Below are positions 3,037-31,515 of a stretch of 64,000 nt of DNA, piece after piece. Where the stretch lies: positions 64,001-128,000 of the forward strand of contig CAVOID010000003.1 of the NCBI GenBank assembly GCA_963695875.1, in the 5' to 3' direction. The position numbers and the translations under genes were made by a program. Each line of letters opens with the position of its first letter. Within the stretch, counting starts at the first letter, position 1. The DNA is from an uncultured delta proteobacterium. GTDB taxonomy: Bacteria > Desulfobacterota > Syntrophia > Syntrophales > UBA2185. The notes beneath the pieces were generated by a model. It made no database searches and was not told the origin of the DNA. It saw only the letters and a list, made by a program, of their open reading frames with translations.

Positions 3037-3040
3037 TCAC

Positions 3041-3923: not shown

Positions 3924-4086
3924 TTTATTTTGCCTCCCTCACCCATGATTTAACCTTGGGTATATGAGTGTTTTTCAAATGTTCCTCGATTTCATACGAG
4001 ATGGACGTATAGTAATTATTTCTTATCAGTTAATATAGTATTGTCAAGAAGAATAATCAAGGGTGATGACATCGGGATTCGACGCA

Positions 4087-8588: not shown

Positions 8589-8668
8589 CCTAAATCTGCA
8601 TCTCGCGGTTAGTCAGAGGTGATAGGGACAGAATAACGTTTGAGTTTTTTATGATCCGTGACCTTCTA

Positions 8669-8700
8669 AAGCCCCTCTACACTCCTGCGCAAAGGGGCTT
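8669..8700. terminator. Hairpin between convergent genes
   Basis: AAGCCCCT...AGGGGCTT inverted repeat. Confidence 0.5.
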
Positions 8701-8727
8701 CAGATGTAAGCCTGATAACAAAAAAAA

Positions 8728-10317
8728 TCACATGGATAGAATTTTTTCCGCCTCTTTCCTATAAGCATCCATTACATAGGGTATACCCGATATTCTGGCT
8801 GCTTCCTCTGTCAGTGACATAACATCTTTCTGGGATACGAGAGAGAGGTTGAAGTTTCTGCTCCCCGCCATGAGCTGCTGTAGCCCGGACTTAAATTTCT
8901 GGCTGAAGGTGTAGAGCCCTATGGCACCAAAGGGAATATTCTTCAATTCGTTGCCGTATTTCTTCTTCAGCTCTTCGTAACTGACAAATATTTCTTCAAC
9001 AGTGTTACCGTATTTGGAAACCGTCTTCGGCAGATCTTTCGCCTTTAACCACTCTCCGATATTCTTACCCACCATACCGGGTATCATTAAACCTCTTCCC
9101 ATGCAAACTGCTTTTACATAGGGATTGCCCATTGCTATGGCCTTAAACACACCATCTTCCGTTGAGAATCCGCCGGCGATGGCAATATCAGGAACCCTGA
9201 TCTTCCTCTTCTTCAATTTATCGCAGAACTGCTGAGTGAGACACTGGATGTAGAATGTAGGAATGCCCCATTCGGTCATCATCGGCCAGGGACTCATCCC
9301 TGTTCCGCCCGGTGCCCCGTCTATCGTCAGGAGGTCTATTTCTGCCTCCGCACAGTAGCGAATGGCCATGGCAAGCTCAACAGCTGAGTATGCACCTGTC
9401 TTCAGTGTTATTCTCTTGAAGCCCACTTTACGTAGTCTCTCCACTTCCTCGAAAAATCCTTCTTCTGTCACAAAACCGAGTCGCGAGTGTCTCTCGAATT
9501 CTTTGATCGCCCCGTCTTTGAATGCGGCCTGGTTTTCAGACAGGGTGGGATCGGGCAGGACAATATACCCTCTCTTTTTCAGCTCGATAGCCCTTTCCAG
9601 GGAATTGACCTTGATTTCTCCGCCGATACACTTGGCGCCCTGTCCCCATTTCAGCTCAATCGTATCCAGCTTATGCTTATTGAGTACATATTCGGCCACG
9701 CCGAACCTCGTATCCTCGACGTTCATCTGAACGAGGATCTCACCATAGCCTTCATAGTAGCGTTTGTATGTTTCAATACGGCGATCCATTTCCGGAGACT
9801 TTTTTACCTTTCCCTTGCTGTCCAGCTCAAGCCCAGGATCAATCCCGCAGACATTCTCACCACACACAATGGTGATACCGGAAATGGCAGCGCCGACGGC
9901 AAAATGCTCCCAGTTCTTGCGGGCAATCTCTGTCGAACCCAGTGCACCCGTAAAAATCGGCAGACGCATCTTCACTTTTTGCTTCCACCCATATTCGGTT
10001 TCTGTGTCAACAGCAGGAAAAATCGCCGTATCGGGACCAGGCTTAACACTTTTTGGCAAGCCCATTGCGCCTACGGCATAACCCTGAATGCTGAGGTGGG
10101 AGTAATCGATAGGATAGTTCTTGTCAGCCCCGGCAGTCATTTCCCCAAAGCTTATGGGATACAAGACCTCACGGCCCCTGAACGTCGATAACCAGATTTC
10201 ACAGCCACCCCTGCATCCGTCAACACATCGCGTACAGATACCCGACATGGGCACCACATCTCTCGATCGGTTAAATGTTCCTGTCGCCTCGTTTGCATTT
10301 GGTTTTCTAAGATTCAT
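8728..10317 (-). CDS. Stand-alone FMN-binding glutamate synthase family protein (GltB2-like)
   Basis: IELKWGQGAK.IGG, TIDGAPGGTG, IAGG, AVCMGR; N-terminal Cys cluster CTRCVDGCRGGC. Confidence 0.88.
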   Translation of the reverse strand: MNLRKPNANEATGTFNRSRDVVPMSGICTRCVDGCRGGCEIWLSTFRGREVLYPISFGEMTAGADKNYPIDYSHLSIQGYAVGAMGLPKSVKPGPDTAIFPAVDTETEYGWKQKVKMRLPIFTGALGSTEIARKNWEHFAVGAAISGITIVCGENVCGIDPGLELDSKGKVKKSPEMDRRIETYKRYYEGYGEILVQMNVEDTRFGVAEYVLNKHKLDTIELKWGQGAKCIGGEIKVNSLERAIELKKRGYIVLPDPTLSENQAAFKDGAIKEFERHSRLGFVTEEGFFEEVERLRKVGFKRITLKTGAYSAVELAMAIRYCAEAEIDLLTIDGAPGGTGMSPWPMMTEWGIPTFYIQCLTQQFCDKLKKRKIRVPDIAIAGGFSTEDGVFKAIAMGNPYVKAVCMGRGLMIPGMVGKNIGEWLKAKDLPKTVSKYGNTVEEIFVSYEELKKKYGNELKNIPFGAIGLYTFSQKFKSGLQQLMAGSRNFNLSLVSQKDVMSLTEEAARISGIPYVMDAYRKEAEKILSM

Positions 10318-10382
10318 GCCTTTACTTCTCCTTCCTCTTATTATGGTATTATTTCAGATACTTTTCTTAGTACCGAATAGAA

Positions 10383-11409
10383 CTATTTACTTTTAAATGC
10401 CCTGCAAATTTCGGAAAATTTACGCAGTTCCTGAAAATCCATCACTGCAGCCATACCACGATTTTCTGTCTGTGATCCCAGCCTCTTGGGCACACGCAAT
10501 CGGGTTGAGTCCTCCTGTAAGAATCAGTCCTACTTTATTTAAATCCACATGTACTTGACAGACAGGTTCGCTCACTTCACCAATGGAAAGAACGCCGCCT
10601 ATTCTTACTTTATTGAGCTTGAGCACAAGTTCCTCGACAAGGGTCTTACATGGTGCAGGAATTTCCCTGAAGTTTGCCAGGATCTTACCCTCTCCCTGTT
10701 TAAGAACGTTGCGGACTGAGGTCATTTTTGCCATGATAAAGGTCTCTGACGGATCGAGTGAGGAGCCGGAATAATAGATCAGCTCAACAAATCTGAGCGG
10801 TTTCCTATCTTTTAGCTGAAGAATCCCCGCAAATTTTGAGTCCATGGGAATGCCTGCCTTCAGCAAAACACCGTTGATCACAATGCTGCAAACTGTTGCC
10901 AGACCGACCTTTACCCGCCGGTATAGGCACATTGCCCAACTGATCATGCTCTCCAGCAACCGCCACGAGATCACTCACTGCCATCCCTGCTTCAAAGGCC
11001 GGCCTCATTACCTTTGAGGGCATCTTTAAACTGTTCCTTAGGGAAGAGAGAAATATTCACGGGAAGAAGACCACGGCCATTAACAGGATCAAATGTTGTT
11101 CTGTAAGCAAGAATTTCTATGCGGGAGATGGCAAGTCCCACTTTATCCTGAACCATCGCATTATTGACTTCGTCGATGCCTCTGTCTGTTACAATTCTTC
11201 CCTCCCTTCTGCCTACAAGGCGAGTCAGCCCCCTTTCATCCATGAGCTTCAGATGATAACGCACAGCGCGCTCACTCAACATTACGCCCAAATCCTGCAT
11301 ACGTCTAGCAATAAGCCGTGCACCGACAGGTTGTCCGCTTTCTTTGAGAATTTGCAGGATAAGGACTATTTTTCTTTCAATTCCTCGTAGAATCAAAAAG
11401 TTTCTTCAT
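10383..11409 (-). CDS. nrpR: NrpR-family nitrogen repressor: winged HTH plus one NRD/DUF128 domain (frameshifted)
   Basis: GARLIA...ERAVRYHLKLMDERGLT wHTH; ATVCSIVINGVLLKAGIP, RFVELIYYSGSSLDPSE, GGLNPIAC NRD motifs. Confidence 0.88.
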
Positions 11410-11416
11410 AAGGTAA

Positions 11417-11434
11417 TCGGCAATTGTTTGCCGA
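11417..11434. promoter_or_regulatory. Candidate NrpR operator
   Basis: Perfect 7-bp inverted repeat TCGGCAA-TTGT-TTGCCGA (CGGCA-N6-TGCCG) between a minus-strand TTGACA (11461-11466) and the nrpR start. Confidence 0.65.
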
Positions 11435-11699
11435 CGCTATTAACAATATTACTGCTTACTTGTCAACAATAATGTACCATTATTTGTTTATTTTTAAGCA
11501 AAAATGTGCTATTTTCCGTGCGAAGATTTCCATAAATTATACCTTTTTTCAACATGGCATCTTTGATATAGTAAATCTAATGATCTAATAATTATTATTT
11601 ATTTTACCGTCATGCGACTGAGTCTTTTTAGTTAGAAAATAGTAGATCGGATAAAATCACATCGCGGACAATATACATAATCACAGGGAGGAAGATCGT

Positions 11700-12947
11700 A
11701 TGGTCAAGACAAATCCATTTGGTATTGCAAACAGACAATTGGATCAATGCTCAAGAATTTTGAACCTGGAACCGGGCATTCATGCAGTACTTCGAGTACC
11801 TATGCGAGAACTTCATGTATCCTTACCAGTACGAATGGATGATGGTTCAATAAAAGTATTCCAGGCATTTAGAGTCCAGTATAATGACGCAAAAGGTACG
11901 ACCATAGGTGGGATCAGGTTTCATCCAGAAGAAACGATAGATAATGTCCGCGCCCATGCAGCATGGATGACATGGAAGTGCGCACTTCTTGATCTACCTC
12001 TCGGCGGCGGAAAAGGTGGTGTAATTTGTAATCCCAAGGAAATGTCGCAGGGAGAACTTGAACGCTTGAGCCGAACATACGTCGATAAACTGGGGCAATT
12101 CATAGGGCCGGAAAAAGACGTACCTGCCCCCGATGTATACACAAACCCGCAGATCATGGCCTGGATGGTAGATGAATACTCAAAACTCTGTGCAAAGAAT
12201 CAGTTTGGAGTCATTACAGGAAAACCAATCCCTCTTGGTGGTTCCGAAGGTCGCAGTGATGCAACAGCACGCGGCGGTCTGTACACGGTTCGTGAAGCAG
12301 CTCAAGAATGCGGGGTTGATCTTTCACAAGCAACAATAGCAATTCAGGGCTATGGTAATTCAGGCTACCATGCAGCAAGGCTTGCCACATCCATGTTGGG
12401 CTGCAAAGTGTTAGCTTGTAGCGACTCCAAAGGTGGTATTTACAATAAGGAAGGGCTTGATCCGGAAGCAGTCGGCATCCATAAGGCAAAGACATCTTCA
12501 GTTATTAATTTCCCTGGTGTAAAACCGATATCAAATGAAGATCTGCTGGAACTCGATGTGGACATTCTCATACCTGCTGCCATGGAAAACGTAATAACAG
12601 AAGAAAACGCCGGAAGGATCAAAGCCAGGATCATCGCGGAGCTGGCCAGTGGACCGGCAACTACCGAAGCCGATGAAATCCTCCATAAAAACGGTATTCA
12701 TGTGATACCGGACTTCTTATGTAACGCCGGCAGCGTTACCGTATCGTACTTTGAAATGGTGCAAAATGCCTATATGTACTATTGGGAAGTAGAAGATGTG
12801 CATAAACGTCTCGACAAGAAAATGACAACGGCATACCATTCAGTCCTCAATGCTTCCAGGAAGTACAATATCAATATGAGGCAGGCTGCTTATGTTGTTG
12901 CAGTTGAGCGTGTCGTTGAAGCAATGAAACTTCGCGGCTGGGTGTAA
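11700..12947 (+). CDS. gdhA: Glu/Leu/Phe/Val dehydrogenase, GDH-like with altered substrate pocket
   Basis: GGIRFHP, MTWKCA, GGGKGG, DVPAPD, TGKP, ATARG, IQGYGN, VSYFE. Confidence 0.88.
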   Translation: MVKTNPFGIANRQLDQCSRILNLEPGIHAVLRVPMRELHVSLPVRMDDGSIKVFQAFRVQYNDAKGTTIGGIRFHPEETIDNVRAHAAWMTWKCALLDLPLGGGKGGVICNPKEMSQGELERLSRTYVDKLGQFIGPEKDVPAPDVYTNPQIMAWMVDEYSKLCAKNQFGVITGKPIPLGGSEGRSDATARGGLYTVREAAQECGVDLSQATIAIQGYGNSGYHAARLATSMLGCKVLACSDSKGGIYNKEGLDPEAVGIHKAKTSSVINFPGVKPISNEDLLELDVDILIPAAMENVITEENAGRIKARIIAELASGPATTEADEILHKNGIHVIPDFLCNAGSVTVSYFEMVQNAYMYYWEVEDVHKRLDKKMTTAYHSVLNASRKYNINMRQAAYVVAVERVVEAMKLRGWV

Positions 12948-13021
12948 TTTATTCCGATCTGGAATGATGAAAGTAATATAGGAACTTGGCACAAAAAAAA
13001 GGCAGGTTCACAAAAGCCCTA

Positions 13022-15631
13022 TTATTCAATATAGCAAATTGCTTTCTGTTTCTGCGGATCAGCTGCAACTTTAGCATATTTTCCTCCAGTTGTTGCCAGC
13101 AAATCAACAATGTGTACCACATTTGTGAATTTAACCGCACCCGGCAAGAGATCTGTGAGGATATTGGGTGAGTTTTCGAAAAATTCATGATTGAAATCTG
13201 CTTCGGGGTCATTTGGATAAACCGGCATATAAATAATCCTCGCTTCGACTAAATCCAGGAAAAAGTGTGTGCCATAGGAAAATTCGGGTAAATGTCCTGC
13301 CTCCTCACGAGCAATTTCCACAAGTACAGATGCATTATTTATATCAACATAACTCACATTGACACCAAGATCGATATTGCTGCTTCCCCATCTGCCAGGT
13401 CCCATCATCATGATCTTACCCTTTGCGATCATTGGGTGATTATTTATAGATCCGACCAAGCGGCCCAGGGATTTCTTTACATCCATGGACTCAACAGCAG
13501 CATAGCGTTTAGGGTCGATATACAGTATGTAGCGGATGTCTGAAATTGTTCCGCCACTGATAGTACGACTGGATTTGAACAGTATGCGATCCTTTGGCAA
13601 CTCATCGGGAAAGGTTACCGGACCGATCGCTCCCGGTATTGTCATCGGCCGGCATTGCAGCAGATTGATCCTGACACGACCACTAGTATCTATAGAAGCT
13701 GTGAATTCTGTGTCTAGTGGATGTCCATAAGCTTTTTCAAGTCTGGTTAGCATGTCATCCATAGTCTTTATGAAATCGGTACGGCTAATCAGGTTGTTAA
13801 AAGTAAGAACAAGCTGCTGTGACGAACTGTCTAGCCGTCCTGTGAATGGATCCATCAGATAGCCGTCTGCCAATAAAGAAACGAAGAGGTGAAGATGGGG
13901 ATAGTCCCTATCGGCCAGGACGTCAATAGCAGACATAGTCGTGAATTCATTCTTCTCTAAATCAAGGATATCTGCCTCCCATTGGGAATACTTTGCAATA
14001 CGGCCTCCATACTCCGGTCTGAGCTCTGGATGGCTTATGGCGATCATTCTGGGATAGTCATTTCCAACCCTGTTCACAGCACGAGTCCCCAATCCGAATA
14101 CAAGGCGGATCAATCCCTTTGTCGCATCTATGCGATCAGTCCATGCATAGAGATTCCTCGAGCAGGCGACACCTGCAAGAGACGGGAAAAAGTATTTTTT
14201 ATATGGCATCCCCGAAACACGCTGCACAAGGATAGCCATCTGTTCATCTCTATCCTCCAGATCCATAGCCCGGCGGTAGGATAGGGCGTCTGGATTCAGG
14301 GCACTGGCATATACGAGTTTCACGGCTTTCAAAAACGCTTCCAGGCGTTCTTCGGAACTACCTTGATTTGCACAAAATTCGCTGCGGTATTTTCCGGCAA
14401 AGGCATTCCGAAAACTATCTTCCAAAAGACTGCTGGATCTGACAATGATTGGCGCCTGACCGAAATAATCTAAAATGTTATAGAATTGTTCAGTGATCTC
14501 CGGGGGGAATTTGCCCCCCAGAAAACGCCTTTCTACTTCCTCAAATTCATCATGGGAAATATGGGAACTTCGGGTCAACTGCAGGCGCAGACGGAAGAGG
14601 TCGTTGTTTACCAGAAAGGTGAAGAATACATCCGATCCGATATAAAAAGAGTCGTGGGTTTCCAGGATCTGTGTAAAATCCTTGGTCCCGTCCTCCATGA
14701 GGATGCGTCTTGCCAGAAGCATCCCAGCTGCCTTTCCACCAATTTGACCCGACCCGATTAATCGATCCCGTATACCCAGAAGATCACTAATTTTGAAATA
14801 GGAGTCCGCCAGCCTGTTGAATTCGGGATGGCTCCCTATCATCATCCGCAAAAGCTCCTGTTTAAGGGCTGAGATTTCCGGTATTGTTTCTGATAGATCC
14901 TTTTCCGTTTCCTGGTATTGCAGCAGTTTCCTGAATACACTTTCCCATGGGGCTATCGATTTTGCCATAATGTAAAGCGGTTTTTTACTAGCCCTTTCAG
15001 ATACCGCTGCGGCATCCCCGCTGTAAAAAACAGGAACCCAGGCTGTGCCCGACATCATGTGAGGAAGGAACATCTGAGGAGAGTATCTGTCCCATACTTT
15101 AAGCGGATGGAGGTACAACATTCCCTGTACATGGTACACATCAATCAGCAACTGGGTCGTGTCTCTAATCCTTGCGACGGCACTGTGGGCGTGTTGACCG
15201 CGTGTTAGGGCAAAGTATGCAACTGTGTCCATCTCAAAAAGATAGGGACATGTCACCTGGAAAAAATTTGCCAGAAGCTCATCAGTTGCCCATTGAACGA
15301 CAAGAGCAGAGAGGTTATCAAATATATAGAAGGCTTCTCTACCAAATGATTCTATAATTTTATTGACTTCACCGCTAAAAGTGTCAAAACCCGCCTCCGG
15401 ATTCAACCTAATGACTGTGAGACCTGGCCGGGATTCAAGAATCTCGGAGTGAGGTGCAAAACGTAGATAGACGCATTTCCGTCCATCTAAAATAGCCTGA
15501 GCTGCGAAAGGTTCCGCAAAATACTTGTACTCCTCCAGATAGTCAACCTGCCAAACGACATTGTCGCCATATCGTAGGCCCTGAAGCACCTCATCAAGTG
15601 AAGATAGGCCGCTTTTTATTGTTGTTTTCAT
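13022..15631 (-). CDS. PEP/pyruvate-binding (PPDK-N ATP-grasp) domain protein with N-terminal degenerate KaiC/RecA-like domain
   Basis: IGGKAAG, VRSSSLLED..FAGKY, MAILVQ, FGLGTRAV, DTEF..LLQCRP; N-terminus SGLSSLDEVLQGL; C-terminus GPGRWGS...SYGTHFF. Confidence 0.85.
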   Translation of the reverse strand: MKTTIKSGLSSLDEVLQGLRYGDNVVWQVDYLEEYKYFAEPFAAQAILDGRKCVYLRFAPHSEILESRPGLTVIRLNPEAGFDTFSGEVNKIIESFGREAFYIFDNLSALVVQWATDELLANFFQVTCPYLFEMDTVAYFALTRGQHAHSAVARIRDTTQLLIDVYHVQGMLYLHPLKVWDRYSPQMFLPHMMSGTAWVPVFYSGDAAAVSERASKKPLYIMAKSIAPWESVFRKLLQYQETEKDLSETIPEISALKQELLRMMIGSHPEFNRLADSYFKISDLLGIRDRLIGSGQIGGKAAGMLLARRILMEDGTKDFTQILETHDSFYIGSDVFFTFLVNNDLFRLRLQLTRSSHISHDEFEEVERRFLGGKFPPEITEQFYNILDYFGQAPIIVRSSSLLEDSFRNAFAGKYRSEFCANQGSSEERLEAFLKAVKLVYASALNPDALSYRRAMDLEDRDEQMAILVQRVSGMPYKKYFFPSLAGVACSRNLYAWTDRIDATKGLIRLVFGLGTRAVNRVGNDYPRMIAISHPELRPEYGGRIAKYSQWEADILDLEKNEFTTMSAIDVLADRDYPHLHLFVSLLADGYLMDPFTGRLDSSSQQLVLTFNNLISRTDFIKTMDDMLTRLEKAYGHPLDTEFTASIDTSGRVRINLLQCRPMTIPGAIGPVTFPDELPKDRILFKSSRTISGGTISDIRYILYIDPKRYAAVESMDVKKSLGRLVGSINNHPMIAKGKIMMMGPGRWGSSNIDLGVNVSYVDINNASVLVEIAREEAGHLPEFSYGTHFFLDLVEARIIYMPVYPNDPEADFNHEFFENSPNILTDLLPGAVKFTNVVHIVDLLATTGGKYAKVAADPQKQKAICYIE

Positions 15632-16112
15632 TTTATAATTTAATAAATCTTGTTCAATAATGTTTTTACCTAATGAATAGGCGCAGTTACATATACTAAA
15701 AAATTAAGTTTTTTCAAATATACTCTTTCTCCTGGATTGTCCCTCTGAAACCTAACATTTTGAGAAAAAATAACCCAAAGATACTAAATATCAAGAAACC
15801 TCAATGCTTTTCAAGTTTCGGCTCTTCAAGAGCCTTATTTTCGATAAAAAAGAGCACAAATAAACGAACGTAAAAAGAAGGGACAGTGAGATCGATTTCA
15901 CTAAGCGGCCGCGTGAACATATAATGCACATAGCTGCCCATCTATCCGTAAAGCAACAAAAATGATTCAAATTACAGAGGACAGGAAAAAAGTTGGGCCA
16001 CTGAAGTAACTAGGGTATAGTCTAAATTTGGACAATTTAATTACTATATACAAAATTGATCATATATTTACAAAGTTCCATTTTTCTTATGTTATCTTAA
16101 ATTAATAAATAA

Positions 16113-16128
16113 AGAACATTTTTGTTAT
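16113..16128. promoter_or_regulatory. AACA-N4-TGTT palindromic site (identical 15-bp core also at 16280-16294)
   Basis: GAACATTTTTGTTAT occurs twice in this intergenic region. Confidence 0.5.
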
Positions 16129-16139
16129 TCCTTATATAT

Positions 16140-16155
16140 TGGCCTTGATTTTGCT
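16140..16155 (+). promoter_or_regulatory. Sigma54 (-24/-12) promoter
   Basis: TGGCCTTGATTTTGCT, GG-N10-GC; sigma54 activator encoded nearby. Confidence 0.7.
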
Positions 16156-16481
16156 TTTAAAATACATTGTCGTTCTAAATTTAAAATAAAAGTTGCATTT
16201 TTGTATAAAATATTTTATATGAATGTAAAGAAATATTATTTTAAAAAATGAATTTTTTTAATTTATTTATTTCAAAAGGGAACATTTTTGTTATACATCA
16301 GTTAATACTGCTGTGATTAATATTGTCTCGGAGGTCTGATCAATACAAATTATCATCCTTCGCTATTCATGGATAAGGGTAATATATTAACAAAAAACAG
16401 TCAAGGCATTACAAGTGGAATGTAGGTTTGGTTGAATAAAAATTATTCATTTTTCAAAACTATATAAAAAAGGAGGAGAAT

Positions 16482-16850
16482 ATGTCTATTAATTGGGGTC
16501 CTTTCTTTATTGTTCCGTCTGAGTCACAAAGGACTCTTTCGGGAAGGGTTGTTTTAAGGGAAAGTTTCGATGAAGAATTACTAAAAAAGGAACTGGACCA
16601 GCTCGGATATTCGCATGCTGCTATCAAGGCAACAAATCCATGGTACTATCGCAAAAAGAACACCGAATCCTGGATAAAGATTGACGAATCTGCAGACAGA
16701 CAAAATAATTTCGCTGTTCCCTGGGAAACAACAAAGTTGGAAAATGGTGAATACCAGATTCTGGGTGTCATGCACGTATCAATCAAAAAAGGCGATGATG
16801 AACAAATAATTGCCAGACAGAATATAATGGATGTTACGATAAAGAATTAG
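16482..16850 (+). CDS. Hypothetical protein, possible Ig-like beta-sandwich
   Basis: AAGGAGG RBS; WETTKLENGEYQI resembles the bacterial Ig-like WDT..NG.Y pattern; followed by terminator. Confidence 0.7.
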   Translation: MSINWGPFFIVPSESQRTLSGRVVLRESFDEELLKKELDQLGYSHAAIKATNPWYYRKKNTESWIKIDESADRQNNFAVPWETTKLENGEYQILGVMHVSIKKGDDEQIIARQNIMDVTIKN

Positions 16851-16863
16851 CTTCTGAAAGAAG

Positions 16864-16888
16864 CCACTTATATTAAGTGGATTTTTTA
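16864..16888 (+). terminator. Intrinsic terminator
   Basis: CCACTT-TATATT-AAGTGG then T-run. Confidence 0.55.
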
Positions 16889-16950
16889 CTAAAGCATTTC
16901 GCAATTGAGTAAAATCCTATATCAAGAAAGGGAGGGGTTCTGCATTAGAG

Positions 16951-18561
16951 ATGACTAAGCCCATATGGAGTCCATCGCAGATTGGAACAACGGGTGGTAA
17001 AGACTTAAGTATTCATAATTACGAGGAACTTGCCGCGCTTCATGCAATTGCAAAGATACTGGCACAGCCCCAGGAGTTACGGGATCATCTTGAGCAGGTC
17101 CTGAAGGAGATGAGTCTTCGGCTGGGAATGGAACGAGGGATGATTTCCCTTCTTGACCGTGAGACCGGGGAAGCCTGGCTTGATATCGCCCATGGTGTCA
17201 ACATTCAAGGGCTTGAAGTCATGTATAAACCTGGCGAAGGTATTACAGGTAGGGTAGCACAAACTGGCCGTCCCATGGCAATTGCCAATCTTGGCAAGGA
17301 GACACACTTTCTTGACCGTACAGGTGCGCGGCGTTCACTAAACAGAGCCGAACTTACCTTTCTGTGTGTACCAATTATTTATGATGCCCGTGTTGTTGGA
17401 GTAGTTTCTGCAGACAAGGTGGCACGCAATGTGGAAAATCTTGATCGCGAACTGGCCATGCTTTCATCGGTTTCTGTACTTATTGCCAGAGCTGTCCATA
17501 CGCGCGCCCTCGAGGAGGAAAACCGCCGTCTGAGAATGATTGTCGGCCGTTCACAAACCCCGTCTGTTGATATCATCGGTACTTCCAGGTCTATGCAGGA
17601 AATCTTTGGTCTTATTGCTCAGGTTGCCGATACGAATACAACAGTATTAATAAACGGAGAAACCGGTACCGGCAAGGAACTAGTAGCAAGAGCAATCCAT
17701 CTGAATAGCTCGCGAAAAGAAAGGCCACTCATTTATGTAAATTGTGCTGCAATGCCGGATACTCTGATAGAAAGTGAACTCTTCGGCCACGAAAAAGGCG
17801 CATTCACGGGTGCTCTGCACCAGCGGAGGGGCCGCTTTGAAGAAGCTAATGGCGGCACAATCGTTCTTGATGAAGTCGGTGAGCTATCCGCAGCAGCTCA
17901 GGCAAAGTTGTTGCGGGTCCTACAGGAAAGACAAATCCAGCCTTTGGGATCATCAAGAGTTGTGAATGTCAATGTTCGTGTAATAGCTGCAACCAATAGG
18001 GACCTTGATCAGGATATTATCTCGGGACGGTTTCGTACCGATTTATATTATCGTCTGAACGTGTTTCCGATTTACTTGCCATCGCTTCGAGAACGGGGCA
18101 GCGATATTATAATGCTGGCAGACCATTTTGTTATAAAATATGCGAAGGTACTTAACAAGCCGGTTAAACGAATTTCTACACCGGTACTGGAAACATTTTT
18201 GTCCTATCAGTGGCCGGGCAATGTTAGAGAACTTGAAAACTGCATGGAAAGGGCGGTCTTAGTGGCAAACGGTGATACTATTGAAAGCCTTCATCTCCCT
18301 CCGTCTCTTCAGGTAAAGGCACGGGATGGAGAGAAAAAAGAACAAGGAAAATTGAAAAATGTTGTCGAAAGTCAGGAGAGAGCCCTTATTATCGATGCCC
18401 TGAAGGAAACAAGGGGAAATCAGAGCAAAGCCGCAAAATTACTTGGTACCACAAAGAGAATTACCCAGTATAAGATTCAGAAATTCGGTATTGACCCATG
18501 GCAATTTCGTCCTAAGAGGAATGGGGCAATAGTAAATCATTTCGAAGAAGGGAAAATATAG
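16951..18561 (+). CDS. GAF-domain sigma54-dependent activator (NifA-like architecture)
   Basis: GAF ([15 protein letters not shown]), Walker [34 protein letters not shown], Fis-type HTH. Confidence 0.93.
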
Positions 18562-18569
18562 GTTAATAT

Positions 18570-18613
18570 GTGACAATTTTGTTACTAATATCATTAAAAA
18601 ACATAATTGTTCT
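18570..18613. promoter_or_regulatory. Tandem ACA-N4-TGT sites, candidate enhancer upstream of the glutamate synthase operon
   Basis: GTGACA-ATTT-TGTTAC (18570) and AAAACA-TAAT-TGTTCT (18598), 28 bp apart. Confidence 0.55.
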
Positions 18614-18793
18614 TTCTTATTGAGTAAAGGGATTATTTCCCTCTTATATTTGCATACTGTTTATTTGACTTTAGTTAAAAATATGTGTAGTTGAAACCCT
18701 GTTTTTTATGGAAGGTACATTTTAGTTTAATTAATACAGGCCTTGTGTATAGCGGTATTCCCTGCCTGGATAGTTAAAGAGAGGAAAAAATTT

Positions 18794-19925
18794 ATGTGCC
18801 GTTTATTTGCTATTACAAGCACAGAACCCCTTTCCCCGATGGTTGCATTGCGTGCTATTGATGTCATGAAGGAAGGTCATGACGGGTCAGGTACAGGACT
18901 GTTTATGACCGATCTGGCTGGTGGCTTTGAGCATCTCAGGAAGGGGCCAATTCTGTCAGGTACCTTTACCAATGAAGGAGTCAAAGTACTGGACCGTTAC
19001 ATGATGGATCGCGATTTTATGGTGAAGTACGAGCTTTCGATTCGCCCAACAAAGCAACCACCTCCGGGTACACCGAAGAGGGACAACTACCTGATCCGTG
19101 TTTATGAATATCCGCCCGGATGGGAAGCGCTCAGCGAGGCGGAGATTCAGTTTCGTTTGATGATGACCCGCTTACAGCTGCGAAAAATGGGAGAAGAAGA
19201 CGGGTCCATGATGATTTTCAGCTTCTGGCCCGATGTTATTATGATCAAGGAAGTCGGCGATCCCATGGTCATTGCGGATTATCTTGGGCTGAATCGAAAA
19301 GAGCTGCAGGCCCGTACGATGCTTGCCCAGGGACGGCAGAATACCAACTACGCTATTAACATCTATGCGTGCCACCCTTTCTTTATCCAGGGAATTGCGA
19401 CCATGACTAACGGGGAAAACACTGCATTTGTCCCCATCAGAGAATTTCTCATGTCGCGGAATTTTCCAGGTTACATCGGATATCAGTCGGACTCGGAGAC
19501 ATTTACTCATATCCTGCATTACACGATCAGACATTTAGGGAAGGGCTTGGATATGTATAAACATGTGATTACCCCCCTTAAGGGATGAAGAAATGGAGCA
19601 TCACCCCGATGGCTCTTGGCTGCGCATGTTAAAGCAGAGCTGTCGTCCTTTAATTATTGACGGTCCAAACTGCGTTATGGGCTGTCTGCCGGACAAGACT
19701 CTTTTTATGGTTCAAGACAGCAAGAAATTACGCCCGGGAGTCGTCGGCGGAAACCCCGGGATGTTTGCCTTTTCTTCTGAAATGTGCGGGCTGGATGCTA
19801 CAATTCCGGCACGTGATAAAAGCCGGGATTTTCAACCAATGAAATACGATACTGTTATAGTCGGCCCGGAACGTCGGGAGGTAGAGATATGGAATCAATG
19901 GGATGCATTACCCCATCCACACTAA
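18794..19925 (+). CDS. Class II glutamine amidotransferase subunit of split glutamate synthase (GltB1-like; frameshift near 19583)
   Basis: N-terminal Met-Cys nucleophile (MCRLF), GRQNTN, CHPF, NGEN, SDSE, KLRP. Confidence 0.88.
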
Positions 19926-21526
19926 GTACAAAAGATCTGCCCTGGATAATCCTCTGGAATAAGGAAAAATGCACCCTCTGCGGTAGGTGTACTGCAGTTT
20001 GCCCTGTTCGTGCAATTGAGCTGGGAGTTCACAGGAAGCGGGCCATACAGGTATCCATCGGTCTGGAGGAAAAGCCCGGCAATCTGTTTACAGCGTTTAC
20101 CACGGCATCGACCAGCGTACAGACCCGGTCCATGCCTGTGTGGGCTGTGGAATGTGCAATCTTGTCTGTCCGAACAATTGCATAATCCCCGTCCATAATG
20201 AGGAAATTGATAAATTGCGCTTCCATATTAATGTGGGGGGCGTTCCGCGACGACGTGGCGGACGTCGCAACGTACCAGGGGCTGTGTCTGGATCAGATCA
20301 AATTCATCCGCATTTCCATGCTAACCGACCCGGCCCTGGATGCTGGACGCCACGAATTTGAACTGAGGACCCTTTTAGGACGAATTCTGCCGCCCGAGGA
20401 GATGCTGAAGGTCACCAGGGAGACACGGCTGGATACCGCCGGTACGGGAAATTTATCCCCTTATCATCGGAAGCATGTCATTCGGTGCTCTGTCGCCCAA
20501 TATGTGGGAAGGCCTTCAGATGGGCGTGGCCTATCTGAATGAAGAACTGGGGATGCCAGTGCGGATGTGTACTGGCGAAGGAGGCTGTCCGCCGAGGCTG
20601 CTCAGGTCTCGATTTTTGAAATATGTAATTCTCCAGATTGCTAGCGGTTATTTTGGCTGGGACGAAATCATCCATGCCCTGCCCGAGATGAAGGAAGACC
20701 CCTGCGCCATCGAAATTAAGTACGGTCAGGGGGCGAAACCGGGTGATGGCGGCCTACTGATGTGGTACAAGGTGAACAAATTGATCGCCGCTATCCGCGG
20801 TGTGCCGTCCGGTGTCAGTCTGCCCAGTCCGCCTACTCATCAGACAAAATATTCTATCGAGGAATCCGTCGCCAAGATGATCCAGTCCATGTACATGGCG
20901 TGGGGTTTCCGGGTACCCGTGTATCCGAAGATTTCGGGAACGAGTACGGCTCTGGCGGTTCTGAATAACCTGACGCGAAATCCCTACGCGGCGGCACTGG
21001 CCATCGACGGCGAGGATGGCGGTACCGGTGCGGCATATAATGTCTCAATGGACCATATGGGACATCCCATTGCCAGCAATATCCGGGATGCCTACCTGAA
21101 TCTGGTCAAGCTCGGGAAACAGAACGAAATTCCGCTGTTCGGCGCGGGCGGCATCGGTAAAAGCGGCAACCTGGCAGCAAATGCAGCCGCCCTGATCATG
21201 CTGGGGGCAAGCGGTGTACAGACTGGAAAATACCTGATGCAGGCCGCAGCCGGATGTCTTGGTTCTGAAAGTGATCGCTGCAACATCTGCAATATCGGCA
21301 TCTGTCCGAAGGGAATTACTTCTCAGGATCCGCGGGTGGATCGAAGACTGGACCCGGAAAAGGTCGCCGAACGTCTAGTGGAAATCTTTCTCAGCTTTGA
21401 CACGGAACTGAAAAAAATTGTTGCGCCTCTGGGTCGCTCCACATCGCTTCCCATCGGTATGTCCGATGCCATCGGCATTGCGGATCATCATGCTGCGGAG
21501 CGACTTAGTATACGGTATGTCTGTAG
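19889..21526 (+). CDS. gltB: Glutamate synthase FMN subunit with N-terminal ferredoxin (GltB2-like; several frameshifts, end approximate)
   Basis: CTLCGRCTAVCP, CGMCNLVCP, MSFGALS, TGEGG, QIASG, EIKYGQGAKPGDGG, DGEDGGTGA, CNICNIGICPKGITSQ. Confidence 0.9.
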
Positions 21527-21538
21527 TAAGGAGTATTC

Positions 21539-23872
21539 ATGTCAAACAAACCAACAATCATTATTCCCGGCATGGAAAAAGGCATCCGTGTCGATTCAAG
21601 GATCCTGGAAGAACGTATTCAGAAAGCTGTCGATGACGGTCATCGATGCATAGAAATAATTGCCCATGGTCAGCATGGAATTGGCGGCCGTCTGTGGAGG
21701 GCAGGGACAGAGTCTGTCCTGATCAGGGTGATGGGGACATCTGGACAGCGAGTCGGTTCCATGGGATTTCCCAATACCTTCATTGACGTTATCGGACCGG
21801 TCTCCGATGATGTAGGATGGCTTAATGCCGGTGCCCAAATTGTTGTTCGCGGCAATGCGACCAACGGTGCGGGTAACGCTATGGCTCAGGGTAAGATTTA
21901 TGTTGTGGGTGACACCGGTGCCCGCGCTATGACGATGACAAAGCATAATCCTCGTTTTGATCCTCCGGAACTGTGGGTGTTGGGAAGCGTGGGGGATTCC
22001 TTTGCCGAGTTCATGGCTGGTGGGATTGCTGTTGTCTGTGGACATAATACGCCCCGTAAGGATAACGTTCTCGGTTATCGCCCATGCGTCGGTATGGTAG
22101 GAGGAAAGATATTCTTCCGTGGATATCATAAAGGCTTCAGTGCGGAAGACGCCAGGTTGACGAAACCCGACGATGACGAATGGCAGTGGTTGATCCTCAA
22201 CATGAAGGATTTTCTCGATACTATAGACCATTCGGAATTGTACCCACTCTTGACCAGTGAACGGGAACAATGGCAGCTCCTTGTGGCCCGTAAGCCTCAT
22301 GAAAAGATTGGTAAGCTTTCCAGAAAGATGAATCAATTCCGTAAAGAAGTCTGGGATCGGGAACTCGGGCCGGGGGGGCTTATCGGCGATCTGTCCGATA
22401 TGGATAGAAGCCCCATCGACGTAATTACAACAGGCATACTGCGTCGATTTGTTCCTGTATGGGAAAATGACAAATACCTGCCGCCCTGCCAGGCGAACTG
22501 TCCCACCGGCATCCCCGTGCAAAAGCGGTGGGAATTGATCCGCCAAGGGTTAATAGAAAAGGCCGTAGATCTGGCACTGTCATATACTCCCTTTCCGGCG
22601 ACCGTTTGCGGGTATCTCTGCCCGAATCTCTGCATGGAACACTGCACACGGCAAAAAGAAAAACTCCCACCGGTCGACATTACCCTGCTCGGCAAGGCCA
22701 GCTTGAAGGCGACGTCGCCGGAGCCTGCTCCCAAGACAGGCAAGAAGATCGCCGTAATCGGCGGTGGGGCATCGGGGCTATCCGTTGCGTGGCAGCTGTG
22801 GATGAAGGGGCATGAGCCGGTCATTTACGAGATGCGGGCTCGCCTCGGCGGAAAGATTACCGACATGATTCCAAGCAGCAGAATTCCTGACGAGGTAGTG
22901 GAACATGAATTGAACCGGGTTAGCGAACAGGTTACCCACATTAATTTGAAGCATCCCCTGACAAAAGAGGAGTTTGTTCAACTCAAGGAAAAGCACGATT
23001 TCACAGTAATTGCCATAGGGGCACAGAAGCCGCGGATGATTCCTGTCCCAGGCAATGAAAGGACAATTCCGGCGCTTGAGTTCCTCAGGCAAAGCAAGGC
23101 GGGCATTGCACAGGTGGGAGAAAAAGTGGTTGTCATAGGAGCAGGCAATGTCGGTTGTGATGCCGCGGCAGAGGCTGTGAGGTTGGGAGCTAAAGAGGTA
23201 ATTCTCATCGACATACAGGAACCCGCATCGTATGGGAAAGAAAGAAAAGCTGCCGAAGCCGCAGGGGCAAAATTCTTATGGCCCCGGTTCACCAAAGCTA
23301 TTACGGAAGAAGGCGTAGAACTGACGGACGGGGAGGTACTACCGGCAAATACGGTCATCGTGTCCATCGGTGATCAACCTGATTTAGCTTTTTTGCCGGA
23401 AGATATTACCACCGACAGAGGTTTTATCGTGGTGGACGACCACTATCAGACCAGCGATCCCGAGGTTTTCGCCATCGGTGATGCCGTCAAGCTGGGTCTT
23501 TTGACGGACGCCATCGGCGCAGGACGCCTCGCAGCAATCGCCATCGATAATGTGCTGAAAGGTTGGTATGAGACCTTTGATAAGCTGCCCCCCATTGACC
23601 CGGGGCGGGTGAAGCTGGAATATTATGACTCCCGCATTCTCGCTTTTGATGATCCTGCGTATTGTGCGTCGCAGTGCGCATCATGCGGGGCATGCCGGGA
23701 TTGCGGTCTTTGCGAAACTATCTGTCCTGTAAATGCCATTTCAAGGCAAGAACTGGATGGTGATGCCTATGAATACAGTGTCAATGATGACAGATGCATC
23801 GGTTGCGGATTCTGTGCCGGGGCATGTCCTACAGGGGTATGGCTGCTCATCGAAAACGAACCTCTGGAATAG
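21539..23872 (+). CDS. Fusion of GltB C-terminal GXGXG domain, GltD-like FAD/NAD(P)H oxidoreductase and ferredoxin
   Basis: AEFMAGG, CQANCP, CGYLCP, GGGASG, GAGNVG, FAIGD, two C-terminal CxxCxxC motifs. Confidence 0.9.
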   Translation: MSNKPTIIIPGMEKGIRVDSRILEERIQKAVDDGHRCIEIIAHGQHGIGGRLWRAGTESVLIRVMGTSGQRVGSMGFPNTFIDVIGPVSDDVGWLNAGAQIVVRGNATNGAGNAMAQGKIYVVGDTGARAMTMTKHNPRFDPPELWVLGSVGDSFAEFMAGGIAVVCGHNTPRKDNVLGYRPCVGMVGGKIFFRGYHKGFSAEDARLTKPDDDEWQWLILNMKDFLDTIDHSELYPLLTSEREQWQLLVARKPHEKIGKLSRKMNQFRKEVWDRELGPGGLIGDLSDMDRSPIDVITTGILRRFVPVWENDKYLPPCQANCPTGIPVQKRWELIRQGLIEKAVDLALSYTPFPATVCGYLCPNLCMEHCTRQKEKLPPVDITLLGKASLKATSPEPAPKTGKKIAVIGGGASGLSVAWQLWMKGHEPVIYEMRARLGGKITDMIPSSRIPDEVVEHELNRVSEQVTHINLKHPLTKEEFVQLKEKHDFTVIAIGAQKPRMIPVPGNERTIPALEFLRQSKAGIAQVGEKVVVIGAGNVGCDAAAEAVRLGAKEVILIDIQEPASYGKERKAAEAAGAKFLWPRFTKAITEEGVELTDGEVLPANTVIVSIGDQPDLAFLPEDITTDRGFIVVDDHYQTSDPEVFAIGDAVKLGLLTDAIGAGRLAAIAIDNVLKGWYETFDKLPPIDPGRVKLEYYDSRILAFDDPAYCASQCASCGACRDCGLCETICPVNAISRQELDGDAYEYSVNDDRCIGCGFCAGACPTGVWLLIENEPLE

Positions 23873-23969
23873 CGAAAAGATACAGTCTGCCACCCAGAGC
23901 GGCCTGATGTTTTCAGCAATAAAGGCACTTTAAGAGTGTAAGATAAAAAAACTAAGAAAGGGGTGTGTT

Positions 23970-25302
23970 ATGTTTTCATGCAAGACGAAAGCGGATGTTA
24001 TTAAAGCGGTCAAGGAACACAACGTCAGTTTCATTCAGTTCTGGTTTACCGATGTGCTGGGGATGCAGAAGATTTTCAGCATCACACCGTCCGAACTGGA
24101 GGAGGGGCTGGAAGAAGGGATGGGCTTTGACGGGTCGTCGATCATGGGGTTTGCACGGATCGAAGAGAGCGACATGATCGCCATGGCCGATCCGACGACC
24201 TTCCAGTTGATTCCCTGGCGCCCTTCCGACCGGCCGGTAGCAAGGATGATTTGCGACATTCTGAATCCTGACGGCACGCCTTATGAAGGTGATCCCCGTT
24301 ATGTCCTAAAAAAGTCCCTCAAAAAGATCGCCGATCAGGGCTATACTTTCTATGTAGGTCCGGAATTGGAATATTTCTATTTCGCCAATGACAAGACAAC
24401 GGACATTCTGGATCAGGGCGGCTACTTTGACGGCCTTCCCATAGACAGTGCCACCGACCTGCGGCGTCAGACGATATTTGCCCTGCAGGATATGGGGATC
24501 CGTGTGGAATATTCTCATCATGAAGTGGCACCGAGCCAGCATGAGATTGACCTCCGTTATGACGATGCCCTGAAGATGGCCGACAAGGTCATGACCTATC
24601 GAACAGCGATCAAAGAGATTGCCCGACAGAACGGTGTCTATGCCACCTTTATGCCCAAGCCTATTTTCGGCCAGAACGGCAGCGGGATGCATACCCACCA
24701 GTCACTCTTCAAGGGCAGCAAAAACGCCTTCTTTGACGGGAAGGATAAATACCATCTGTCCGCGGTGGCAAAAAGCTACATCGCCGGTTTGATGACCCAT
24801 GCCCCGGAAATTACGGCCGTCTGCAATCAGTGGGTAAACTCCTACAAGCGCCTGGTACCCGGTTACGAGGCACCGGTTTATGTCTCCTGGGCGCGACGCA
24901 ACCGTTCTACCATGATTCGTGTTCCCATGTACAAACCGGGGAAAGAGAAGGCAACACGCATCGAGTTCCGTTCGCCCGACCCGGCATGCAATCCCTATCT
25001 GGCCTTTGCCGTGATGCTGGCGGCCGGCATGAAAGGCGTAGAGAAGAAGTACCCACTCCCCGAACCCATCGAAGAAGATATCTTTGAAATGGATGAGAAG
25101 GCCCGGGAAAAGGCGGGAATCACCTCTCTGCCGGGGAGTCTATATGAGGCCTTGATCGTTAGTATCAAAGAGTAAGCTTGTCAGGGAAACACTGGGGGAT
25201 CATATCTTCCAGAAGTTTATTGAAAACAAGAAGGTGGAATGGGATCGTTTCCGGACCCATGTGAGTCAGTACGAAATCGAACGGTATCTGCCCATACTGT
25301 AA
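23970..25302 (+). CDS. glnA: Glutamine synthetase type I, GSI-alpha-like (C-terminal frameshifts)
   Basis: FDGSS, GPELEY, HHEVAPSQHE, FMPKP, NGSGMHTH, SYKRLVPGYEAP, RIEFRSPD; C-terminus EIERYLPIL in another frame. Confidence 0.96.
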
Positions 25303-25322
25303 TGTAGGACATCATGAAAGTG

Positions 25323-25348
25323 GGGGCGGCTTCTCACGAAGCCGTCCC
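25323..25348 (+). terminator. Hairpin downstream of glnA
   Basis: GGGGCGGCTTC-TCAC-GAAGCCGTCCC. Confidence 0.5.
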
Positions 25349-25575
25349 TCCTCCGGCCTAGGCAAAACCTTTTTTCGAACTCATCTTAATGCCTCTCAAT
25401 ATAAGATTGAAAGATATCTTCCCTTGATGTATATAGAGCCACTTATTTCCTGGCAGAATAAAAGGTGGAAGTGATTGAAATTTATTAATTATTGAAGGAC
25501 CGCAATCCGATGGAACAACTTGGAGGAAGAAGCCACTATCATCAGTAAGCATACTCCTGTCAGTGGAAACGTCAT

Positions 25576-26765
25576 ATGTCAATTTTAAAGCACAATCACC
25601 CGGCCATATTGGTTTTGGAAGATGGGAGCGTATACCAAGGCTATGCTTTCGCCTCCTCCGGCGAGACCATGGGAGAGGTCGTATTTAATACAGGGATGAC
25701 CGGATACCAGGAAATAATAACCGATCCGTCCTACAAGGGGCAGATTGTGACCATGACCTATCCTTTGATCGGTAATTATGGAATCAATCCGGAAGATATG
25801 GAATCCGGAGATATCCACCTGGAAGGTTTTATCGTCAAAGAGTATCAGCCATACCCGAGTAACTGGCGAAGCCGGATGAGTTTAAAGGAGTTCCTTGAGT
25901 CTCACGGCAAAATAGGTGTCGAAGGCATTGACACGAGGGCATTGACGCGCCGCATACGCCTGGAGGGTGCAATGCGCGGGATCATTTCCACCGAGACCAG
26001 AGAGACTGACCTCTTGCTCACGCGTGTACGTGCTTATCCGGGTCTTGTAGGTCGGGACCTGATAAAAGAGGTGACCTGCAAGGAACCATATCGATGGAAG
26101 GATGGCGGACCTCAATCGCTAGCATCCACGGTTTAACTGAATCTTCCATAAGCAATGACGGGGCAACAGAATCAGGTGATGGGAAACGGCAGTTACGTGT
26201 CGTTGTTCTTGATTGCGGTGTCAAATACAATATTCTGCGAAATCTGGAGAGGTTAGGTTGTGAAGTCCTGGTCTTGCCCGCGACAGCGACCGGGAAGGAG
26301 ATGTTATCGTACAAACCGGACGGGATTTTGCTTTCCAATGGGCCGGGAGATCCGGCGGCATTACCTTATATTGTAGAAGCAACTGAACAGATCCTGGGTA
26401 AAGTTCCGATCTTCGGAATCTGCCTTGGTCATCAGATTTTGGGGCAGGCACTGGGCGGAAGGACAGAGAAACTGAAGTTTGGCCATCATGGCGTCAACCA
26501 GCCTGTCAAAAACATGCAAACCGGACGGATTGAAATCACATCGCAAAACCATGGGTTTGTTGTCGTGCCGGAATCCCTGCCGGAAGACCTGGAAAAAACA
26601 TATGATAACCTCAATGACCATACCTCGGAGGGAATGTGCCACCAGACCGAGCAGGCATTCAGTGTGCAATACCATCCCGAAGCGGCGCCGGGTCCTCACG
26701 ATGTCAACTATCTGTTTGAAAAGTTTGTATCCCTCATGAAAATGAATAAGGAAAAGTCGACATGA
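25576..26765 (+). CDS. carA: Carbamoyl-phosphate synthase small subunit (frameshift near 26130)
   Basis: GEVVFNTGMTGYQE, SNGPGDP, GICLGHQ, TSQNHGF, QYHPEA. Confidence 0.95.
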
Positions 26766-28292: not shown

Positions 28293-28303
28293 ATATATAG
28301 CGA

Positions 28304-31300: not shown

Positions 31301-31515
31301 GTATTAAAAACGGCGATATCCAGGTGGTGATCAATGCGAGTGTGGGACGCAGGTCAACCTTCGACGCCTATCACATACGCCGCGGCGCTCTCATCTATAA
31401 TGTGCTTTACACAACGACGATTGCCGGTTCCAGGGCGCTGAGTGAGGCTATTATGGCATTGAAGAAGGAAAAGTGGGAGGTTTCTCCACTTCAGGACTAT
31501 TATCGTAAAGTGTAG
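28304..31515 (+). CDS. carB: Carbamoyl-phosphate synthase large subunit (several frameshifts)
   Basis: [62 protein letters not shown]. Confidence 0.96.

Follow-up and report, generated by a model that had tools for sequence, protein, structure and literature searches.

In methanogens (Methanococcus maripaludis), NrpR is the 2-oxoglutarate-sensing repressor of nif and glnA, its operator has the form GGAA-N6-TTCC, and a single NRD domain is characteristic of the Methanosarcina NrpRI type. To our knowledge, NrpR has been characterized only in archaea, and energy-starved syntrophs have hardly been studied with regard to nitrogen control. Full-text searches of open-access papers, which leave aside the subscription literature, returned work on archaeal NrpR and no regulon or operator for a bacterial one; the exception to the archaeal focus is a 2007 phylogenomic paper (PMC1852104), which notes NrpR homologues in Dehalococcoides as likely lateral gene transfers. 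Here we describe a 16.5-kb block from a 64,000-nucleotide stretch of DNA (hereinafter the window; G000:C3:64001-128000), in which nrpR and a gene for a GAF-domain sigma-54 enhancer-binding protein (EBP) stand beside genes for glutamate dehydrogenase (GDH), glutamate synthase (GOGAT) and glutamine synthetase (GS). The host is an uncultured Syntrophales bacterium, a peat-dwelling syntroph represented by a metagenome-assembled genome (G000; 2.86 Mb, 16 contigs, 82.6% complete). On balance, we favor reading the block as a core ammonium-assimilation locus made of two regulatory modules lying side by side, an NrpR module (module A) and an EBP module (module B), and we see more evidence for two neighboring regulons than for a single integrated switch.

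Pfam and NCBIfam scans of the open reading frames (ORFs) between 7.2 and 28.2 kb agree with the genes listed in a first-pass annotation of this DNA, which had called the block a nitrogen-control island (Table 1). The island is conserved across the relatives examined and does place a genuine homologue of NrpR, together with a GAF sigma-54 activator, beside GDH, GS and GOGAT genes, but it consists of two modules that separate in evolution, because four nrpR-less congeners keep EBP-GOGAT-glnA without module A. Among 20 loci fetched around nrpR in relatives, the full series mnmG-gltB2like-nrpR-gdh-dikinase-like-orf122-EBP-GOGAT-glnA recurs in the same order in five (G007, G011, G002, G016 and G004), three more hold part of it, and the remaining 12, from other genera and families, have nrpR beside gdh, often with the dikinase-like gene; nrpR adjoins gdh and/or the GltB2-like gene (gltB2like) in all 20. 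The four nrpR-less genomes (G013, G014, G015 and G019, of a neighboring genus and 95-100% complete) give no match to PF01995 and retain the EBP at 88-89% identity, and their loci run mnmG-EBP-GOGAT(-glnA) in four cases out of four, with gltB2like, nrpR, gdh, the dikinase-like gene and orf122 all absent. In a further set of 80 nrpR loci from public genomes, nrpR is followed on its own strand by gdh in 49, by gltB2like in 20 and by neither gene in five; in the other six the contig ends. These 49 gdh genes comprise 16 of the window's type and 33 that are ~30% identical to it, and one gdh of this commoner type exceeds the NADP-GdhA equivalog cut-off (752 vs 536 bits). Orthologues of the EBP (66-75% identity) and of the dikinase-like protein (40-64%) recur near nrpR/gdh, usually divergent from each other, the latter in other families and in loci titled Dehalococcoidia.

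Of 41 genomes drawn from the genus, family and order, 31 gave a match to the NRD domain; of 151 drawn from the phylum, 36 did so, and among 14 control genomes the domain was confined to two methanogens. The records holding the closest nrpR loci are titled Syntrophales, Syntrophaceae, Smithella, Syntrophus or 'delta proteobacterium', and a further nrpR group (56-61% identity) is titled Dehalococcoidia. A contig of one public sequencing run (X2) joins window position 7373 to 17280 (mnmG to the EBP gene) and leaves out the 9.9 kb in between. With just 21 letters on its shorter side, this joint was too weak for us to use; it may be either a natural variant lacking the nrpR module or an artefact.

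The NrpR of module A shares the winged helix-turn-helix (HTH) plus NRD architecture of its archaeal counterparts. The winged HTH (PF08461, HTH_12; 73.5 bits in the N-terminal fragment) is conserved in 10 intact relatives aligned, and the NRD (PF01995; 185.6 bits in the fragment, 259-285 bits in relatives) matches PDB 3NEK, the NRD structure of MJ0159, with an E-value of 6.6e-25; an intact orthologue of 340 amino acids (aa) is present in locus L016. It differs from archaeal NrpR in its bacterial host, with a sigma-70/sigma-54 polymerase, in its single NRD domain, and in its predicted targets, with nrpR itself and either gdh or the GltB2-like gene in the place of nif and glnA.

We compared 79 regions upstream of nrpR (62 not titled Dehalococcoidia and 17 so titled) with shuffles, and recovered CGGC-N8-GCCG in 39 of the 79 (0.3 in shuffles), along with TCGG-N10-CCGA in 35, GCAA-N4-TTGC in 24 and GGCA-N6-TGCC in 23. 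These dyads are a single palindrome, TCGGCAA-N4-TTGCCGA, whose GGCA-N6-TGCC core has the same 4-6-4 geometry as the archaeal operator, with one base per half-site changed from GGAA-N6-TTCC. When up to one mismatch is tolerated, 60 of the 62 loci without a Dehalococcoidia title have GGCA-N6-TGCC, and in most of them it stands 17-56 bp ahead of the matched start; the corresponding figure for shuffles is 6.75 of 79. The only perfect copy of the palindrome in the 2.86-Mb genome is the one at 11417-11434 of the window. Common variants of the palindrome (TTACCG, TGGCCG) change one arm while the other arm is not compensated, which favors a protein site over an RNA stem; a search of Rfam over positions 8000-27000 gave no match at E≤1, hence no known riboswitch or leader.

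Beyond nrpR, no palindrome with up to two mismatches lies near any glnA or amtB in the genome, and none lies at the GOGAT genes; near-matches on contig C9 were rejected as NrpR sites, as they sit in a flagellar gene cluster and resemble the sigma-28 -10 element. Between nrpR and the gene downstream of it no second palindrome was found, and an enriched TTCC-N10-GGAA between nrpR and gdh was rejected as such, being conserved gdh coding sequence. From this lack of a second copy after nrpR, we infer an autoregulated nrpR-gdh or nrpR-gltB2like operon. Given that gdh or the GltB2-like gene comes next after nrpR in 69 of the 80 further loci, NrpR looks like a local regulator of 2-oxoglutarate-aminating enzymes (GDH or GltB2-like), not of glnA, as far as gene order and the predicted operator indicate.

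The EBP of module B combines GAF (PF01590), AAA+ sigma-54-interaction (PF00158, 240 bits) and Fis-type HTH (PF02954, 34.9 bits) domains, like the NifA/NtrC-type EBPs, and unlike NtrC has no receiver domain; its best-scoring model is NifA (TIGR01817), at 474.1 bits and thus below the cut-off of 528.85. Footprinting of the spacers in six aligned genomes detected conserved ACA-N4-TGT cores with GTTACA...TGTTAC flanks before orf122, before the GOGAT genes and in the nrpR-gdh spacer, where both members of the pair (11466 and 11498) fall in blocks conserved in six of six genomes. The exact pattern ACAWTTTTGT occurs 17 times in the window's genome, seven times outside long ORFs, and these seven include three in the block and one (C11:983) upstream of amtB; in the single-contig relative G007 there are 20 exact matches as against eight for the reversed control pattern. 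Upstream of amtB, two sites spaced 29-30 bp apart (C11:983/1013) lie 75-90 bp before a sigma-54 promoter of the form TGGCAC/TGGCAT-N5-TTGC (TGGCACCAGAATTGC in the window's genome, TGGCATTGAAGTTGC in G007), and both sites are kept in seven of seven genomes while their flanks diverge. As these seven include the four genomes without nrpR, the ACA-N4-TGT motif is not that of NrpR.

In spacing and conservation, the pair at amtB is arranged like an enhancer that would serve a sigma-54 activator; the leading candidate for that activator is the block's own GAF-EBP. Paired sites 75-90 bp before TGGCAC-N5-TTGC, as at amtB-glnK-glnA, are a likeness to NtrC- and NifA-dependent promoters, whereas the ACA-N4-TGT core is unlike the NifA (TGT-N10-ACA) and NtrC (TGCACC-N5-GGTGCA) sites. 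In other families, sites of the ACA-N4-TGT type occur in the EBP/dikinase-like spacer of four of seven loci, and TGGTAT-N5-TTGC/GTGC directly precedes the EBP gene in four of seven, two of which (L084 and L096) have both. On the dikinase-like strand of the same spacer in L084, L096, L097 and L115, a conserved TGGTAT-N5-TTGAA resembles a possible sigma-54 promoter with an atypical -12 element. The EBP-GOGAT spacer of the window is ~150 bp shorter at 18585-18640 than in L016, L021, L024, L028 and L034, and the missing stretch holds a conserved GGATGTGACATGCGATCTTATCT.

The window encodes no PII, NtrBC, GlnE or receiver-type EBP, in keeping with the first-pass annotation, and the genome-wide matches fall outside C3:64001-128000 except for the EBP itself. 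The wider claim that nitrogen control here dispenses with the Ntr paradigm stands in part: GlnD and GlnE were found in none of the 22 genomes surveyed in the family (including one single-contig genome 99% complete), and no protein of the window's genome passes the NtrC equivalog cut-off (best 463.3 vs 558.6 bits; NtrB was not searched separately), but PII is present, with three PF00543 matches in the genome, two of them directly after amtB and before a glnA. The amtB-glnK-glnA(-SPFH) clusters so formed lie on contigs C11 and C14 and code for a 474-aa GS scoring 582 bits on the enterobacterial model, while the glnA of the block codes for a 443-aa type I GS (TIGR00653; the fragment scores 504 and the intact orthologue 548 bits). 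The sigma-54 gene rpoN is at C8:51110, and nifDK (PF00148) was not found in the 82.6%-complete genome as assembled. In one relative of the same genus, amtB directly follows the glnA of the block (G002:C72:545-1777, within L024), at the place occupied by carA in the window. The earlier interpretation as a non-Ntr arrangement combining a bacterial NrpR with a GAF sigma-54 activator is thus partly supported.

Taken as two adjacent regulons, the locus might work as follows. Module A, comprising nrpR and gltB2like on one strand, the divergent gdh, the dikinase-like gene facing gdh, and then orf122, would be governed by the bacterial NrpR, which would bind TCGGCAA-N4-TTGCCGA, covering the start of the nrpR transcript, and repress nrpR together with the following gene until 2-oxoglutarate accumulates. 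That following gene is GltB2-like in the window's family and an NADP-specific gdhA in most Syntrophales, and the outcome would be a substrate induction of 2-oxoglutarate-aminating enzymes. Module B, comprising (orf122-)EBP, the three-gene GOGAT and glnA, would be tied to the NifA-like GAF sigma-54 activator, which is predicted to bind paired sites of the GTTACA-N4-TGTTAC type and to activate both the amtB-glnK-glnA sigma-54 promoter elsewhere in the genome and its own promoter; through the same sites it may also modulate the GOGAT genes and those flanking the nrpR-gdh spacer, which would amount to cross-talk between the modules. The activator thus appears tied most clearly to amtB-glnK-glnA, and NrpR to the GDH or GltB2-like genes. 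As for the GOGAT sites at 18573 and 18601, they may modulate a sigma-70-type promoter, as NtrC modulates glnAp1 in Escherichia coli, or do nothing.

A tighter coupling, in which NrpR and sigma-54 activation act jointly on the same promoters of the block to choose between GDH and GS-GOGAT, is plausible but rather less likely. It would suit the adjacency of two regulators and both assimilation routes in a conserved order, the ACA-N4-TGT-type sites, which stand before orf122/EBP and GOGAT and also between nrpR and gdh, and the other Syntrophales families in which the EBP and dikinase-like genes adjoin nrpR-gdhA; however, the NrpR-type palindrome is restricted to nrpR, GOGAT, glnA and gdh have no conserved sigma-54 promoter, and module A is lost as a unit in four congeners in which module B persists. 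Plain metabolic clustering, with NrpR merely autoregulating and ACA-N4-TGT being AT-rich promoter context or the sites of an unrelated factor, is unlikely. It would fit the continuation of the cluster into carA-guaA-carB-purF and the pdxST and hisF genes upstream, the promoter-like and terminator-like scans, whose counts are not above those of shuffles, the several site pairs that lie elsewhere beside unrelated genes, and the overlap of one site with a sigma-70-like -35/-10 spacer before orf122/EBP. Such an account is difficult to reconcile with two amtB sites that outlast their diverging flanks at enhancer distance from a canonical sigma-54 promoter, or with the excess of exact matches over the reversed control in G007.

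Several observations nonetheless weigh against the picture of two adjacent regulons that we prefer. The putative assignment of each motif to its protein comes from co-occurrence only, and with at least 14 sigma-54 activators in the genome any of these could own the ACA-N4-TGT sites. Other genome-wide pairs (30-32 bp spacing) adjoin genes without a nitrogen link; those rejected on this ground lie beside transglycosylase/NlpC, carB-like, rubrerythrin and pncA/pncB-like genes. The four nrpR-less genomes (L145-L148), while keeping both sites, have TAGCAT in place of TGGCAT as the amtB -24 element. Before orf122, which the first-pass annotation had described as an orphan with a sigma-54 promoter, the sigma-54-like element at 16140-16154 is indeed present, but with two mismatches to the consensus and with a match in only three of the six aligned genomes; a generic sigma-54 pattern at two mismatches gives 50 matches against 52.9 expected and is uninformative without conservation. 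Nor is a sigma-54 promoter conserved before GOGAT, glnA or gdh (zero to one of six genomes per spacer), so that the EBP could not activate them directly. On the NrpR side, the palindrome is present at up to one mismatch in only seven of the 17 Dehalococcoidia-titled loci, it lies ~130 bp from the gdh promoter-like site, such that control of the divergent gdh is not evident in the window's family, and the methanogen-type GGAA-N6-TTCC has two matches in the window, neither in the block, with 2.0 expected by chance. Finally, over nrpR the X1 contig shares only ~97% identity with the window and so does not represent the exact strain, and nrpR may still be truly broken in the window's strain.

This last point concerns the reading frames of the block. 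Searches (tblastn) with the intact proteins of G007, which served as the reference, place nrpR in four frames and mnmG, gltB1, Fd-gltB2, glnA and carA in two pieces each, with every piece retained; the assembly is rich in single-base frameshifts, with six genes broken in the block, and amtB on another contig (C11:1182-2371) is likewise in four pieces. In G007 each gene is one open frame, with lengths of 529 (GltB2-like), 340 (NrpR), 415 (GDH), 870 (dikinase-like), 122 (orf122), 539 (EBP), 376, 544 and 777 (GOGAT genes) and 443 aa (GlnA). The nrpR breaks are single-base insertions at about 10474, 10913, 11013 and 11386. Among contigs assembled from independent public runs, those of X1 and X5 are one base shorter at each of the four positions, and X3 is likewise at 10474. 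With the frames intact in relatives and one base fewer at the nrpR breaks in independent contigs, the broken frames are most likely assembly indel errors. That nrpR is instead a decaying pseudogene, leaving the NrpR arm dead in this genome, is quite improbable: its four frame changes within 1 kb do exceed those of any neighboring gene, but each piece is 67-89% identical to the intact orthologue without deletions, the junctions fall at short homopolymers, housekeeping genes (mnmG, carA, glnA and amtB) are broken in the same manner, and at every break the contigs from two or three runs are shorter by exactly one base.

Table 1. Features of the block and its borders, with positions counted from the first letter of the window.
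Feature	Position	Strand	Observations
mnmG	about 6821-8597	+	TIGR00136, 562 bits; left border of the block; one frameshift near 7254-7267
GltB2-like FMN-binding protein, stand-alone, 529 aa	8728-10317	-	PF01645, 69 bits; same strand as nrpR, just downstream of it
nrpR	about 10398-11409	-	PF08461 (HTH_12) and PF01995 (NRD1_2); ~340 aa when intact; in four pieces, with the ORF pieces scanned at 10420-11396
Predicted NrpR operator, TCGGCAATTGTTTGCCGA (GGCA-N6-TGCC)	11417-11434		7 nt before the nrpR start codon
ACA-N4-TGT-type pair	11466-11507		ACAATAATGT at 11466 and GCAAAAATGT at 11498 (one mismatch); nrpR-gdh spacer, 32 bp apart
gdh, hexameric-type glutamate dehydrogenase	11700-12947	+	PF00208 and PF02812; divergent from nrpR
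Dikinase-like protein, 869 aa	13022-15631	-	PF01326 (PPDK_N), 163 bits, residues 296-665
orf122-EBP control region	16116-16291	+	ACATTTTTGT sites at 16116 and 16282; sigma-54-like TGGCCTTGATTTTGC at 16140-16154
orf122	16482-16850	+	No Pfam/NCBIfam family; hairpins with a T-run after it, 16850-16880
GAF/sigma-54 AAA+/HTH_8 enhancer-binding protein (EBP)	16951-18561	+	PF01590, PF00158, PF02954
ACA-N4-TGT sites upstream of GOGAT	18573-18610	+	ACAATTTTGT at 18573, ACATAATTGT at 18601
gltB1-like gene	18794-19925	+	Intact orthologue 376 aa; one frameshift near 19569-19579
Ferredoxin-domain plus GltB2 (FMN) GOGAT subunit	19889-21653	+	Fer4 and PF01645 in the intact 544-aa orthologue; at least one frameshift
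GltB3 (GXGXG)/GltD-like NAD(P)H oxidoreductase/2x[4Fe-4S] fusion, 777 aa	21539-23872	+	PF01493, PF14691, PF07992, PF12838
glnA, type I glutamine synthetase, 443 aa	23970-25302	+	TIGR00653; one frameshift near 25159-25196
carA, guaA, carB, purF-like amidotransferase	25576-32953	+	Glutamine-using enzymes continuing the cluster

Turning to the enzymes, the GDH, which had been taken for a divergent variant, is an ordinary glutamate dehydrogenase, a full-length member of the ELFV dehydrogenases that scores 600 bits with the GdhA_Arch model (below its cut-off of 750). The GOGAT, described earlier as split, is indeed made of separate genes, three in number (376, 544 and 777 aa in the intact relative), and the additional splits are frameshifts. 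It is an archaeal-type enzyme of a GltB1-like protein, a ferredoxin-GltB2 protein and a GltB3-GltD-ferredoxin fusion, with matches to PF01645 (184-191 bits), PF01493 (35.2 bits; cut-off 32.5), PF07992 and PF14691. As in the archaeal multi-gene glutamate synthase, there are separate genes for a putative N-terminal nucleophile (Ntn)-type protein with a Met-Cys start, for a ferredoxin-flavin mononucleotide (FMN) protein (PF01645) and for a GXGXG protein (PF01493). It differs in that a single protein of 777 aa unites GltB3 with a GltD-like NAD(P)H oxidoreductase and a ferredoxin domain, and in that the GltB1-like protein, although it starts with Met-Cys as Ntn amidotransferases do, matches no Pfam family, NCBIfam family (including GATase) or PDB sequence even as the intact 376-aa orthologue.

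The stand-alone GltB2-like protein would be a 2-oxoglutarate-aminating flavoenzyme, judging by its family, in which conservation is very tight. Its relatives with 79-94% identity are labelled Syntrophales, Bathyarchaeota and Bacillota, and all bear the name 'FMN-binding glutamate synthase family protein'; proteins labelled Bathyarchaeota, 'miscellaneous Crenarchaeota group' and Caldicellulosiruptoraceae are ~79-82% identical to it. Such identity across domains suggests either a recent exchange or extreme constraint. PDB sequence searches returned nothing for the GltB1-like or GltB2-like protein and one weak match for the dikinase-like protein.

The dikinase-like protein shares the central PPDK_N nucleotide-binding domain (163 bits) with phosphoenolpyruvate (PEP) synthase, pyruvate phosphate dikinase (PPDK) and rifampicin phosphotransferase. 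PPDK_N is the sole family detected at E≤0.1, and E≤1 adds two chance-level matches (PAXNEB and DUF2987, E about 0.2). Its N-terminal domain, unlike that of the above enzymes, is predicted to adopt a KaiC/RecA/FlaH-like fold (Foldseek match to KaiC over ~220 columns, E 1.7e-9), and its sequence reads as lacking the Walker A motif (P-loop); its C-terminal domain has no assignment, the structural model is poor in the center (mean pLDDT 56.7), and only the match of the confidently modelled N-terminal fold was used. An identity as PEP synthase was rejected, as searches at E≤0.1 detected no His-swivel and no PEP/pyruvate C-terminal domain, and the 37-55 bits reached with NCBIfam models of PEP synthase are far below their cut-offs (about 600-880). 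The product of orf122 is predicted to be an immunoglobulin (Ig)-like beta-sandwich (AlphaFold pLDDT 81; all-beta but for one helix), whose matches in the PDB are generic Ig-like ones that do not reach E≤0.001. Its representative homologues number 82, and some are repeats within giant proteins. Among the loci compared, orf122 occurs only in the window's own family, and it has the look of a passenger gene that has come to lie between the EBP and the EBP promoter.

Beyond the block, carA and guaA span 25576-28222 (+; CPSase small chain and GATase in Pfam/NCBIfam), carB within 25576-32953 is in two pieces, and pdxT/pdxS and hisF-type genes lie upstream at 2384-4869, such that the whole region looks like a glutamine-economy supercluster. 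A UPF0261/PEP-hydrolase-like pair and an RtcB-archease pair are found at 33107-35183 and 58676-60669.

More broadly, and tentatively, it is possible that bacteria partnering with methanogens (Syntrophales, other Desulfobacterota and Dehalococcoidia) took over the archaeal NrpR and, with an operator change of one base per half-site, rewired it to switch, locally, the assimilation of ammonium without ATP by NADP-GDH or the stand-alone GltB2-like enzyme, while a NifA-like GAF activator replaced NtrBC for amtB-glnK-glnA and GOGAT. The dikinase-like protein with its KaiC domain and the GltB2-like protein, ~80% identical across domains, would then be unrecognized members of the network. For the bacterial NrpR, a candidate operator and target set (gdh or the GltB2-like gene) can now be proposed, along with an enhancer motif for its partner sigma-54 activator. 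If these proposals are true, the same sensor protein would have been fitted to bacterial promoters, and NrpR would in these organisms act on the inexpensive GDH route and not on GS or nitrogenase.

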